The notes beneath the pieces were generated by a model. That model searched no databases. It saw only the letters and a program-made list of their open reading frames with translations, and was not told the DNA's origin. The position numbers and the translations under genes are program-made. Source: Klebsiella phage vB_KpnM_Croc_ER14. Taken from it: DNA of 64,000 nucleotides. Of the stretch, positions 44,581 to 47,630 are shown piece after piece. The stretch is taken from sequence record PP738763.1, one strand, 5' to 3'. Positions within the stretch are counted from its first letter, which is position 1. The number at the start of each line of letters is the position of its first letter.

Positions 44581-44952
44581 ATGTTTGATAAAGCAACCCG
44601 TCTGAAACTGCGTTTCAACTCCAACAAAGGCCAGCTGTCCGTTGAGCAGGTGTGGGATCTGAGCCTGACTGCTCTGAACGAAATGGCGAAAGGTCTGAGT
44701 CGCGAACTGAAAGCCGCTGCGGTCGACGATGAAGATTTCATCGGCAACAATACATCCGTCGACTCTCAGCTGCAGCTGCGCTTTGACATCGTCAAAAGCA
44801 TCATCAGCACCAAGCTGAAAGAGCGCGATGACAGCCTGTCCGCTGCAGAAAAACGTGAGCACAACCAGGTTATCCTGGAACTCATCAAGAAGAAACAGCA
44901 GGAAGAGCTGGCGGGTAAATCTGTTGAAGAACTGCAAGCCCTGCTGAAATAA
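44581..44952 (+). CDS. Hypothetical protein (123 aa). Its last 9 codons plus the terminator are duplicated downstream of namat.
   Basis: Track ORF. The 3' end ...gttgaagaactgcaagccctgctgaaataa recurs at 47549. Confidence 0.45.
   Translation: MFDKATRLKLRFNSNKGQLSVEQVWDLSLTALNEMAKGLSRELKAAAVDDEDFIGNNTSVDSQLQLRFDIVKSIISTKLKERDDSLSAAEKREHNQVILELIKKKQQEELAGKSVEELQALLK
44922..44948 (+). repeat. 27-bp perfect direct repeat, copy 1 (tgttgaagaactgcaagccctgctgaa).
   Basis: Identical to 47549..47575. Flanking bases are also similar (aaatNtgttg). Confidence 0.85.
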
Positions 44953-44972
44953 ATCCGTCAACTCCGGTCTTA

Positions 44973-45003
44973 GAAACCCCGCCCTGTGCGGGGTTTCAAT
45001 TTG
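44973..45003 (+). terminator. Rho-independent terminator aaaccccgc-cctgt-gcggggttt.
   Basis: Same hairpin family as 27988 and 47603. Confidence 0.6.
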
Positions 45004-45050
45004 TGTATCGCAGTATAATACATATGTAAACTAAACTATGGGGCTACGTT

Positions 45051-45905
45051 ATGTTTCGTTTGAGATTGAACGACCAAGATGTGTTCTACAAACACTTCAC
45101 CTTTCCAGGCGGTGAGGAACATATCAAGATTCAAAAGGCGGGTATCCCTGTTGGTAAAATCCAGACAGTGGTAATTGACGCCCACATTAAATCGTCAGCA
45201 GACTTCATTGAGCTGGCACTGTTGGTGAACGCCGTGCGCGGCCTGGGTAATGTCGACCGACTGACAACATTTCATGCTTATATCCCTTATTTTCCATATG
45301 CCCGCCAGGATCGTCATTGCGACTTTGGTGAACCTCTTTCGGTGAAGTGGGCAGCAGAGTTCATCAATAGTATGAACTTTGACCGTGTGGCGATCAAAGA
45401 CCCTCACAGCCATGTTGTGTCTTCTCTGATCAACAACGTCCATGTTGTCCCGCAAGATTACATTGCTCGCCAGTACCTGGGATGGTTCATTCGGGGCAAC
45501 AACGCTGTGTTGGTAGCTCCCGATGGCGGCGCGGCGAAGAAGACTGAAACCCTCAGCCTATCGCTGGATGGCGTTCCTGTTGTCTACGGACATAAGAACC
45601 GCGACACCAAGACAGGCGAGATCATTGGGGTGAGTATTACAAACCCTGAACTGATCAGAGACCGCTATCTGGTTGTGGTTGATGATATCTGTGACGGCGG
45701 GCGAACGTTTGTTGAGCTGGGCAAAGAGCTTCAGAAGCACGAGCCTAAGCACATGACCCTCTTCGTTACCCACGGCATTTTCAGCAAAGGCCTCTCTGTG
45801 TTCGACGGGATCTACGATGCTGTGTATGCCGACACTGTCTGGTGGGAGAACATCACCGCCGACGGTCTTCCATTCAAAACTGAAAATACAGGACGTGTAA
45901 AATGA
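45051..45905 (+). CDS. Ribose-phosphate pyrophosphokinase (PRPP synthetase)-family enzyme. Candidate Adps (ADP-ribose diphosphokinase) of a NARP1-type NAD+ reconstitution pathway.
   Basis: FHAYIPYFPYARQDRH parallels Prs PYFGYARQDRR. YLVVVDDICDGGRTFVELGKEL parallels Prs VLVDDMIDTGGT. ATGA-coupled to the downstream NAMPT-like gene. Confidence 0.7.
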   Translation: MFRLRLNDQDVFYKHFTFPGGEEHIKIQKAGIPVGKIQTVVIDAHIKSSADFIELALLVNAVRGLGNVDRLTTFHAYIPYFPYARQDRHCDFGEPLSVKWAAEFINSMNFDRVAIKDPHSHVVSSLINNVHVVPQDYIARQYLGWFIRGNNAVLVAPDGGAAKKTETLSLSLDGVPVVYGHKNRDTKTGEIIGVSITNPELIRDRYLVVVDDICDGGRTFVELGKELQKHEPKHMTLFVTHGIFSKGLSVFDGIYDAVYADTVWWENITADGLPFKTENTGRVK

Positions 45906-47554
45906 GCATGCGCCACTTAGATCCAATCCATGCAATCGACTTCTACAAATCAGGGCACATCTATCAATTCCCTGAAGGTAGCGAGCTGGTGTTCTCCAAC
46001 GGAACTCCACGCTCCAACAAACTGTTCAACTCCCACCTGCCGAAGAACGGCGTGGTGGTCTGGGGTATCCAGGGATTCATGACCTGGTTCCACGAACTGT
46101 TTGATGAAGCGTTCTTCCAGCGCCCAAAGGCCAAGGTGCTGAAGAAGTATGCCCGTCGAATGAACAAAGTTCTCGGACCAGGCCGCGTTGGGACAGAGCA
46201 TATCGAAGCCCTGCACGACCTCGGCTACCTGCCTATTGAAGTCCGTGCTCTGCCCGAAGGCACCATGTGCCCGTATGGTGTTCCGGTATATGTGATGTTC
46301 AACACCTTGCCGGAGTTCTACTGGCTGACCAACTATCTGGAGACGGTGTTCAGTTCTGAGATCTGGAAGCCGATGACGAACGCCACCATTGCCCTGCACT
46401 ACAAAGCACTGATGGTGAAAGCCGCTATCGCTACAGGCGTGTCGCCGGACCATTGGTTCATCGACTACCAAGGCCACGACTTCTCCTTCCGTGGTATGAG
46501 CGGGTGGCATGACGCGGCGTCTTCCGGTTCTGGCCATCTGGTGTTCTTCAAAGGCACCGACACCAACCCTGCCCTGGACTTCGTTGAAGAGTATTATGGC
46601 GCGGATATCGATGAAGACTATGTCGTTGCTGGCTCTGTTGCAGCCACCGAACACGCCGTGATGTGCATGGGCACGAAAGATGGCGAATTCGAAACCTTCG
46701 AGCGCCTGATTTCTAAAGTCTATCCGGACGGGATTGTCAGTATCGTTTCTGATGCATGGGATTACTGGCAGGTCATCGACGACTATCTGCCGCGCCTCAA
46801 AGATATCATCATGGCGCGTAATGGCAAAGTTGTGATCCGCCCCGACTCTGGTGACCCGGTGCATATCGTCGGTGGTTATCGCGTCGAAGAATTTTGCAAT
46901 GAGCAGGATTTTTACGATAACGACCCACGTGAAGAAACTGAAGTTATCTATCTCAAAGAAGAAAACAGATACCATATTCTGGAACAATATCAGTTTAATC
47001 AGATCGGGGAAGAGATTTCTCGTTCAGAAGCGGTCGGTTCTATCCAGCGCCTATGGGAGATCTTTGGCGGAACCCAGACCGAAACGGGCCACTTCCTGTT
47101 GGATGAGCACATCGGCCTGATCTACGGTGACTCCATTACCCTGAGCCGTGAAGATCAGATCTTTGCTCGTCTGGCTGAACGGAATTTCGCTTCCATCAAC
47201 GTAGTGTTCGGTATCGGTTCCTATACTTACCAGATGAACACCCGTGATAGTACCGGGACGGCGGTGAAAGCAACGGCTGGGAAGGTCAACGGTGAATTCC
47301 GTGAGATTTTCAAAGAACCGAAGACTGACAAAGGTGGTACGAAGAAATCTGCGCGTGGTTTCCTTAAAGTCATTAAAGACTCTCAGGGTAAACTAGTGTT
47401 GGTTGATGGTATCACGTTTGACCAGGTGCAAGACGCAGATAATCAGCACCAACTGGTTTACCGTGATGGCAAGTTCTTCAATACTCAGACTCTGGAAGAT
47501 GCGCGCGTTCGTGCCGCTCCTCTGGTGGAAGAATTGGCATCTCAAATATGTTGA
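45902..47554 (+). CDS. Nicotinamide phosphoribosyltransferase (NAMPT/NadV)-family enzyme. Candidate Namat of the NARP1 pathway.
   Basis: 550 aa, NAPRTase/NAMPT-like architecture with an N-terminal DFYKSGH motif. Translationally coupled to the Prs-like gene. Confidence 0.7.
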   Translation: MSMRHLDPIHAIDFYKSGHIYQFPEGSELVFSNGTPRSNKLFNSHLPKNGVVVWGIQGFMTWFHELFDEAFFQRPKAKVLKKYARRMNKVLGPGRVGTEHIEALHDLGYLPIEVRALPEGTMCPYGVPVYVMFNTLPEFYWLTNYLETVFSSEIWKPMTNATIALHYKALMVKAAIATGVSPDHWFIDYQGHDFSFRGMSGWHDAASSGSGHLVFFKGTDTNPALDFVEEYYGADIDEDYVVAGSVAATEHAVMCMGTKDGEFETFERLISKVYPDGIVSIVSDAWDYWQVIDDYLPRLKDIIMARNGKVVIRPDSGDPVHIVGGYRVEEFCNEQDFYDNDPREETEVIYLKEENRYHILEQYQFNQIGEEISRSEAVGSIQRLWEIFGGTQTETGHFLLDEHIGLIYGDSITLSREDQIFARLAERNFASINVVFGIGSYTYQMNTRDSTGTAVKATAGKVNGEFREIFKEPKTDKGGTKKSARGFLKVIKDSQGKLVLVDGITFDQVQDADNQHQLVYRDGKFFNTQTLEDARVRAAPLVEELASQIC

Positions 47555-47575
47555 AGAACTGCAAGCCCTGCTGAA
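47549..47575 (+). repeat. 27-bp perfect direct repeat, copy 2. Begins at the namat stop codon.
   Basis: Identical to 44922..44948. Confidence 0.85.
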
Positions 47576-47601
47576 TAGCCAGCTGCCTTCGGCGCGATAA
47601 T

Positions 47602-47630
47602 GAACCCCGCCATGTGCGGGGTTTATTTTA
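47602..47630 (+). terminator. Rho-independent terminator gaaccccgc-catgt-gcggggtt plus a T-run.
   Basis: Stem-loop identical to the gp23 terminator. Confidence 0.6.

Follow-up and report, generated by a model that had tools for sequence, protein, structure and literature searches.

In NAD+ reconstitution pathway 1 of phages (NARP1), a protein resembling ribose-phosphate pyrophosphokinase (Prs), called Adps, makes ADP-ribose pyrophosphate (ADPR-PP) from ADP-ribose (ADPR), and a protein resembling nicotinamide phosphoribosyltransferase (NAMPT), called Namat, adds nicotinamide to yield NAD+; for both, routine annotations mislead (Osterman et al. 2024, bioRxiv 10.1101/2024.02.11.579819). Structures of the NARP1 enzymes are available (PMC12774641, PMC13586617). 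A variant from Vibrio phage Gary, NARP1-AP, has the same Adps and Namat core and carries in its operon the Macro-domain phosphatase Adpp, such phosphatases extending NARP1 against RES-type NAD+ phosphorylases (bioRxiv 10.64898/2026.01.28.702374). NARP2, the NadV and NatV pair of Vibrio phage KVP40, shares a NAMPT-family enzyme and an anti-defence purpose but has no Adps and needs a nicotinamide mononucleotide (NMN) adenylyltransferase (NMNAT), and no phage carrying both NARP1 and NARP2 was found in the discovery paper (bioRxiv 10.1101/2024.02.11.579819). Here we analyse 64,000 nucleotides of Klebsiella phage vB_KpnM_Croc_ER14 (record PP738763.1), referred to below as the window, in which a Prs-like and a NAMPT-like gene stand directly downstream of a 123-aa gene (g123) and are bounded by an exact 27-bp direct repeat. 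We conclude that the pair very probably constitutes a NARP1 operon and that the repeat is the scar of an illegitimate recombination event.

XDRKpn-1, Madison, 0507-KN2-1 and further Klebsiella phages share 98–99% identity with the window, and the matching phages with a full taxonomy line belong to the genus Taipeivirus of the family Ackermannviridae; adps and namat are 86–88% identical to those of Salmonella, Shigella, Escherichia and Enterobacter Ackermannviridae. A 2024 review of the Ackermannviridae linked the family's NAMPT and ribose-phosphate pyrophosphokinase genes to evasion of NAD depletion and reported that Agtrevirus phages vary in carrying them. Supplementary Table 1 ('Adps homologs') of the discovery paper (Osterman et al. 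2024, bioRxiv 10.1101/2024.02.11.579819) itself has entries for the Prs-like proteins of Menlow and 0507-KN2-1, from which the window protein differs at 2 of 284 residues, each marked 'Namat within 10 genes: Yes'. An earlier note on this DNA, made from the letters without database searches, had proposed a NARP1-type pair; the residues of Adps, the clamp of Namat and these sister proteins bear that call out, and for this lineage it is already published. Compared with the NARP1 of Bas63, SPbetaL1, Fado and ICP1, the window has the same adps–namat order, the Bas63 PP loop, the catalytic lysine, the ADPR contacts and the Namat clamp and core; it differs in two clamp residues (Met445 for SPbetaL1 Tyr396, Lys40 for Arg40), in an insertion of ~42 residues after Namat residue 325, and in a Namat C terminus and stop codon that appear to derive from the relic of a neighbouring gene.

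Adps and Namat in the window

The Prs-like protein is 37% identical (E 5e-42) to the genetically validated Adps of Bas63, and its PP loop, DDICDGGRTF, is the same. The catalytic lysine and the ADPR-binding residues of ICP1 Adps were identified in the ICP1 structure paper; ICP1 residues F18, R87, H121, D161, K185, D212, D213 and F221 are conserved in the window protein, and across an alignment of five sequences (ICP1, Bas63, SPbetaL1, a Pseudomonas-phage Adps and the window protein) the catalytic Lys185, Asp212/213, His121, Asp161, Arg87 and Phe18 are invariant. Phe92 and Phe223 of ICP1 are not conserved in the window, and likewise not in Bas63. Although Pfam, PHROGs and NCBIfam name the pair generically, as Prs and NAMPT/NAPRTase, the first protein reaches only 56–66 bits against solved Prs structures and lies below every NCBIfam Prs cut-off (TIGR01251, 105.3 bits against 113; NF002095, 94 bits against 296). 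Its binding loop, which the earlier note had singled out for inspection, reads DDICDGGRT and not the ribose-5-phosphate-binding DxxDTGGT of Prs, present as DDMIDTGGT in the best solved Prs match. An adjacent namat accompanies 97% of Adps-clade genes and does so here, the two genes being translationally coupled, as the note had seen, through an ATGA overlap of stop and start.

The evidence for Namat is of the same kind. The NAMPT-like protein scores 456 bits against the crystal structures of SPbetaL1 Namat (9W5X/9W5W) and ~179 bits against true NAMPTs, a 2.5-fold difference, so that in the comparison with characterised enzymes suggested by the earlier note both proteins lie closer to Adps and Namat than to Prs and NAMPT. 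The clamp-helix motif GS-X-Phi-X-Phi-X-Phi-TRD, which is confined to Namat and absent from Nampt, is present as GSYTYQMNTRD (residues 439–449), with exact spacing and flanks; tyrosine fills two of its three X positions, and the third has methionine instead of the usual aromatic residue. In the selectivity-clamp loop, whose third position takes Arg, Lys or Tyr, Lys40 aligns with Arg40 of SPbetaL1; the loop is four residues longer than that of SPbetaL1, and its adenine-stacking residue is not readable from sequence. Seventeen of 20 NAD+-contact residues are identical to those of SPbetaL1 Namat; the other three are the conservative exchanges R40K and F392Y and the non-aromatic Y396M. Lysine at position 40 is an allowed alternative to arginine, and Ala362 of SPbetaL1 is likewise replaced, by serine. 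The Nampt-like catalytic core (SPbetaL1 Arg306, Asp308, His245, Asp215, Arg192, Arg399, Asp400 and others) is preserved, the window protein retaining Arg313, Asp315 and the ATEH histidine. The insertion (46877–47032, residues ~326–377) is also absent from ICP1 Namat and is the part of the gene least conserved between genera.

The earlier note had seen no NMNAT near the pair, and none is listed among the 209 features annotated for XDRKpn-1, whose 99%-identical genome serves as a proxy in which not all hypothetical proteins were profile-searched. Whereas NARP2 lacks Adps, the window encodes one, and its second enzyme has the Namat clamp, not the GGG-type loop of Nampt. The window also departs from NARP1-AP: only two genes lie between its terminators, the neighbours being g123 (no domain), a DUF3268 protein and a Phage_gp49_66 protein, and no RyR/RyDEP or Macro domain was found as a NARP1 partner among the operon's neighbours. 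From the family residues, the Namat clamp and the absence of an annotated NMNAT it follows that the pair is a two-gene NARP1, not NARP2 and not NARP1-AP. Two annotations touch on these partners. A 149-aa open reading frame (ORF) at 53212–53661 is labelled 'cytidyltransferase' in FKP14 and phi1_175010 (Pharokka-style annotation); it was considered as an NMNAT candidate and rejected, as it has no Pfam or NCBIfam match and the label looks unsupported. XDRKpn-1 has an annotated macro-domain protein at 156080–156685, ~88 kb from the operon and outside the window.

From homology to the characterised enzymes we infer that Adps would carry out the ATP-driven pyrophosphorylation of ADP-ribose to ADPR-PP, and that Namat would combine ADPR-PP with nicotinamide into NAD+, directly from both products of an NAD-cleaving defence. 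The pair would thereby counter SIR2-HerA, DSR1/2, type I Thoeris and SEFIR and allow the phage to replicate in NAD+-depleting hosts.

Origin of the repeat

As the earlier note had it, the window contains two exact copies, and no more, of the 27-mer TGTTGAAGAACTGCAAGCCCTGCTGAA (Table 1); none is expected in shuffled sequence. With the repeat finder the match grows to 32 nt and takes in a single mismatch (AAATCTG... in copy 1, AAATATG... in copy 2). The ORF confirms the placing of copy 1, in frame, at the 3' end of g123. Copy 2, said in the note to begin exactly at the namat stop codon, was misplaced by 3 nt: it begins upstream, at the codon for Cys550, and supplies both that codon (TGT) and the TGA that ends the gene. 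The near-identical terminator hairpins reported behind the two copies are real (AACCCCGCC[C/A]TGTGCGGGGTTT; minimum free energy −20.9 kcal/mol, z −4.4, for T1 and −22.9 kcal/mol for T2), and the spacers of 26 and 27 nt between repeat and hairpin are unlike in sequence.

Table 1. Features of the adps–namat locus, in window coordinates (UTR, untranslated region; RBS, ribosome-binding site)
Feature	Position	Strand	Basis and remarks
g123 (conserved 123-aa gene, PHROG 2018)	44581..44952	+	phrog_2018 match, 6.3e-47; last 27–32 bp form repeat copy 1
Repeat copy 1	44917..44948	+	in-frame g123 coding sequence, ..SVEELQALL; exact 27 nt at 44922–44948
g123 3'UTR (spacer 1) and terminator T1 (AACCCCGCCCTGTGCGGGGTTT, 44975–44996)	44953..44997	+	terminator scan, fold
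Operon leader, caatttgtgtatcgcagTATAATAcat...GGGG RBS	44998..45050	+	present with adps in every NARP1-positive locus
adps (Prs-like, 284 aa)	45051..45905	+	ORF; Adps homology
namat (NAMPT-like, 550 aa)	45902..47554	+	ORF; Namat homology; ATGA overlap with adps at 45902–45905; final codon and stop (47552–47554) from repeat copy 2
Repeat copy 2	47544..47575	+	putative 3'-end relic of a second g123 copy; exact 27 nt at 47549–47575
Putative relic g123 3'UTR (spacer 2) and terminator T2 (47603–47624)	47576..47624	+	colinear with relatives' g123 3'UTR
Gene X (DUF3268 zinc-finger protein)	47641..48018	+	Pfam match
Gene Y (N4 gp49/Sf6 gp66 family)	48019..48774	+	Pfam match

We compared 13 related loci by tblastn with the window proteins and read their junction sequences. 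g123 stands upstream in all 13, and the genes that may follow it are here called X, Y, W (118 aa), v (47 aa) and vWA (732 aa, annotated as a VWFA-domain protein in relatives); T denotes a terminator. In type A, g123-T-X-Y-adps-namat-(W)-v-vWA with a single 27-mer, the operon follows X and Y; May (Taipeivirus), SKML-39 (Agtrevirus) and KFSST3 (Kuttervirus) are so arranged, and Gloob is close to them, with X decayed and Y lost. Type D, g123-T-adps-namat-W, is found in KFM-TASP06. The window and nine other phages are of type B, g123-T1-adps-namat-[27-mer relic]-T2-X-Y-W, and Menlow and nine others have the same order without X (type B'). The operon is absent from type C (g123-T-X-Y-W; HMGUkp5, IME250), type C' (g123-T-Y-W; FKP14, phi1_175010) and type C'' (g123-T-W; KWBSE43-6). 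In KFM-TASP06 (6070–12469) and its sibling TTM-TASP117, g123, namat and vWA lie in pieces with duplicated stretches, a fragmentation that suggests assembly or sequencing errors.

Read against these relatives, copy 2 is foreign to namat. In types A and D the gene ends natively in ...CAAAT(C/T)TGATAA followed by its own terminator (aaggggagg..cccctgtttt), which is seen in May, SKML-39, Gloob, KFSST3 and KFM-TASP06 and is missing from types B and B', the window included, and the namat homology of Agtrevirus and Kuttervirus stops at window position ~47547–47550. From copy 2 onward, the spacer, hairpin and start of X are colinear with the region downstream of g123 in C-type phages (95% identical in HMGUkp5); spacer 2 and T2 match in order the g123 3'UTR and terminator of HMGUkp5, FKP14, phi1_175010, KWBSE43-6 and May; and X and Y come directly after g123 in relatives without the rearrangement (tblastn gene order, 13 loci). 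Where g123 reads ...GGTAAATCTGTTGAAG..., the joint of types B and B' reads ...CAAATATGTTGAAG.... A 301-nt probe spanning copy 2 divided 43 database records into three groups: one with the namat–27-mer junction, a common joint that is identical in 19 phages; one of NARP1-less phages, in which the match starts at 47543/47544, inside the g123 tail; and one of three IME250 records, matching from the terminator onward only. The colinearity with the C-type region, together with the native namat ends elsewhere, identifies copy 2, as far as sequence can, as a relic of the g123 3' end joined to namat at a 4–7-nt microhomology, AAAT(C/A)TG, and T2 as a g123 terminator that now appears to serve the NARP1 operon.

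On the left side the conserved leader (caatttgtgtatcgcagtataatac...) comes immediately after the hairpin behind g123, an arrangement shared with the D-type phage. The T1 hairpin also stands behind g123 in Taipeivirus, Agtrevirus and Kuttervirus loci, and the leader accompanies adps whether a g123 terminator or the gene Y terminator precedes it; it probably provides the operon's own promoter and RBS. A sigma-70 scan of the leader called no promoter.

The simplest history that we infer from these arrangements is a single unequal crossover between a D-type (g123-terminator-adps-namat-W) and a C-type (g123-terminator-X-Y-W) genome. The 3' end of namat, ancestrally ...CAAATCTGATAA with its own terminator, would have been fused, through AAATCTG, with the final 27 bp of another copy of g123, which would have brought along its own 3'UTR, its terminator and its usual followers X, Y and W. 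Both proposed parental types are still present in the genus, the D-type as KFM-TASP06 and the C-type as HMGUkp5. Junctions of phage mosaics and 'morons' arise by illegitimate recombination at short microhomologies, and this locus resembles them in its 4–7-nt microhomology, in the relic gene fragment at the joint, in the self-contained unit with its terminator and probable promoter, and in the variable presence and position of that unit among relatives. The junction is a clean, well-resolved example of such mosaicism, not a new mechanism.

Two further readings were considered and set aside: an alternative frame across copy 2 (VEELQALLNSQLPSAR*), taken as a possible C terminus of a longer g123 allele, was rejected because all g123 homologues end in ..LLK* and the relics of other phages retain ATAA, the window relic having decayed; and a sub-threshold RsmY match on the terminator, the sole match in an Rfam scan of 42.7–48.1 kb, was dismissed.

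Turnover of the operon among relatives

The earlier note took the repeat-bounded pair for the footprint of a cassette inserted, or kept mobile, by recombination between repeated gene ends, and it predicted relatives in which the cassette would be missing around a single 27-mer. Such relatives exist: HMGUkp5, FKP14 and phi1_175010 lack NARP1, are ~98% identical to the window in the flanks and have one 27-mer followed by a copy-2-type 3'UTR. The flanks are matched by 44 Klebsiella records and the operon, anywhere in the record, by only 30; no operon match was found in Serratia records. With respect to X and Y the operon is found in two different places, and its presence or absence combines freely with that of X. 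Counted over four-fold degenerate sites, the window agrees with May at 70–85% in backbone genes and at 51–57% in adps and namat, whereas it agrees with Agtrevirus/Kuttervirus phages at 43–51% in vWA and g678 (the gene of the 678-aa ORF), both large backbone genes, at 50–66% in the short g123 and at 63–70% in NARP1; between May and SKML-39, nucleotide identity climbs from ~45% to ~93% at the operon leader. The record counts, the two positions and the discordant genealogy show that the cassette turns over, and the sequences indicate a cassette whose history differs from that of the backbone and an operon that is old in the family.

Turnover and empty sites therefore uphold one part of the cassette claim, while the other part does not stand, as the repeat appears to be the by-product of one illegitimate join and not a recombination site that was there beforehand. 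Between 42.5 and 51.5 kb none of the genes that a dedicated mobile element would carry (recombinase, transposase, homing nuclease) was found, and turnover looks like ordinary homologous exchange in the flanks with occasional illegitimate joins, with no sign of a dedicated mobility mechanism. The nearest nuclease-like ORF, with a NUMOD3 motif (homing-endonuclease-like, 291 aa, 53621–54496), lies 6 kb away and overlaps the end of the 149-aa ORF described above.

Other features of the neighbourhood are recorded here. The interval between g123 and vWA (47641–49346) is a hotspot of accessory genes, in which X, Y, W and the 47-aa gene vary independently (present, missing, truncated or replaced) among phages with ~98%-identical flanks; gene Y (Phage_gp49_66) is labelled 'anti-CRISPR protein' in two Pharokka-annotated relatives. 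ARAGORN calls a 91-nt tRNA-Thr(GGT) at 42918–43008 (−), inside and antisense to the conserved 678-aa ORF, and the records of XDRKpn-1 and KFM-TASP06, which leave the 678-aa gene out, annotate the same tRNA; because Rfam gives no tRNA at 42918–43008 at E<=1, the call is probably spurious and takes the place of a real gene in those records. The gene at ~40800–42008, placed by correspondence and two upstream of the 678-aa ORF, is labelled 'aGPT-Pplase1 domain-containing protein' in XDRKpn-1 (71763–72971), a name that would point to a family of thymidine hypermodification enzymes.

Competing explanations and significance

Several points weigh against reading the locus as a NARP1 operon with an illegitimate-recombination scar. 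Met445 of Namat replaces a tyrosine, SPbetaL1 Tyr396, which together with one other clamp-helix (SCH) residue is reported to touch the adenine ring, and SPbetaL1 Namat has no counterpart of the ~42-residue insertion; for these reasons substrate preference could differ in degree, and a shift of preference in Ackermannviridae Namat through the Met445/Lys40 clamp and the insertion may be entertained from the sequence, though as less likely than the homology-arm reading discussed below. The window Namat passes the NCBIfam NAMPT/NadV-type model (475 bits against 405), from which it follows that family-level hidden Markov models do not separate Namat from Nampt, and in the papers that could be searched neither this phage nor any other of the Ackermannviridae has an enzyme assay or an infection phenotype on record. 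As to the scar, the exact left parent (g123, spacer 1, T1 and an operon with a native namat end) occurs in no database phage, and the KFM-TASP06 and TTM-TASP117 records are partial genomes full of frameshifts. The left crossover is unmappable, the g123 differences specific to NARP1-positive phages forming a small 5' patch (44617–44682) with no breakpoint, and which way the change ran between genomes with and without NARP1 is not fixed by these data.

Were the enzymes instead those of classical salvage, the Prs-like protein making phosphoribosyl pyrophosphate (PRPP), the NAMPT-like protein making NMN and host NadR/PncC completing NAD+ in a general nucleotide and NAD boost, the database names of the pair and the single methionine among the clamp aromatics would fit, as would the PRPP activity that Namat enzymes partly keep in vitro (PMC12774641). 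We hold this to be very unlikely, given that the Prs-like protein groups with validated Adps beneath all curated Prs cut-offs, that the second protein has the Namat-only clamp motif and 2.5-fold more bits to a solved Namat than to NAMPT, and that the homologous operon of Bas63 is functional without nadR/pncC. The remaining alternatives concern the repeat. Coincidence, or a mere genome-wide family of identical terminators, might be argued from the hairpin, of which a third exact copy (AACCCCGCCATGTGCGGGGTTT) lies at 27989–28010 directly after a 443-aa ORF (26636–27967), between flanks unrelated to the g123 3'UTR; because this third copy stands behind an unrelated gene, the hairpin alone is a recurrent terminator of the genome and no mark specific to the cassette. 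The 27-mer, however, is g123 coding sequence and not terminator, none is expected by chance, and from the 27-mer through spacer and hairpin to the start of X the sequence as a whole is colinear with the relatives' g123 downstream region, so that this explanation is already refuted. By its position, the 443-aa ORF corresponds to the gene annotated as the major head protein in XDRKpn-1.

A tandem duplication of [g123 tail-X-Y-adps-namat] within one lineage, followed by loss of X and Y from the first copy and of adps and namat from the second, could equally use AAATCTG and the terminators' GTTTC run as its microhomologies and starts from an order, g123-X-Y-adps-namat, that exists in May, of the same genus, and in Agtrevirus and Kuttervirus. 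It is nonetheless unlikely: three events are needed where the crossover needs one, the window and May agree far less in NARP1 than in the backbone at the four-fold sites cited above, the window leader is of the KFM-TASP06 and not the May type, and the two g123 3'UTR spacers are different alleles, not copies of one sequence. We give a similarly low probability to the idea that the duplicated g123 tail and terminator (~76 bp, near-identical over the 27–32-bp repeat and the 22-bp hairpin) act as homology arms by which NARP1 may be repeatedly shed and regained without a dedicated recombinase; if true, Taipeivirus populations would balance what the operon costs them against their exposure to NAD-depleting defences. 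The single 27-mer and copy-2-type 3'UTR of the NARP1-less genomes and the free combination of NARP1 with gene X agree with it, and KWBSE43-6, NARP1-less yet carrying the g123 patch otherwise seen only in NARP1-positive phages, hints at loss. Exchange within long, 98%-identical flanks, however, explains the same combinations without the 27-mer; HMGUkp5, FKP14 and phi1_175010 have a g123 patch allele that differs from that of NARP1-positive phages and a 3'UTR that keeps the intact stop context lost in the window relic; and no excision junction has been observed directly.

Taken as an unequal-crossover scar behind a NARP1 operon, the junction offers a base-pair-resolved example of an anti-defence operon reshuffled by microhomology joining. 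Taipeivirus phages that are candidates for therapy, with flanking genes ~98% identical, differ in the presence, absence or position of NARP1, and natural near-isogenic pairs, the window type against HMGUkp5 or FKP14, are usable to gauge NARP1 against SIR2-, TIR- or RES-type defences of Klebsiella.

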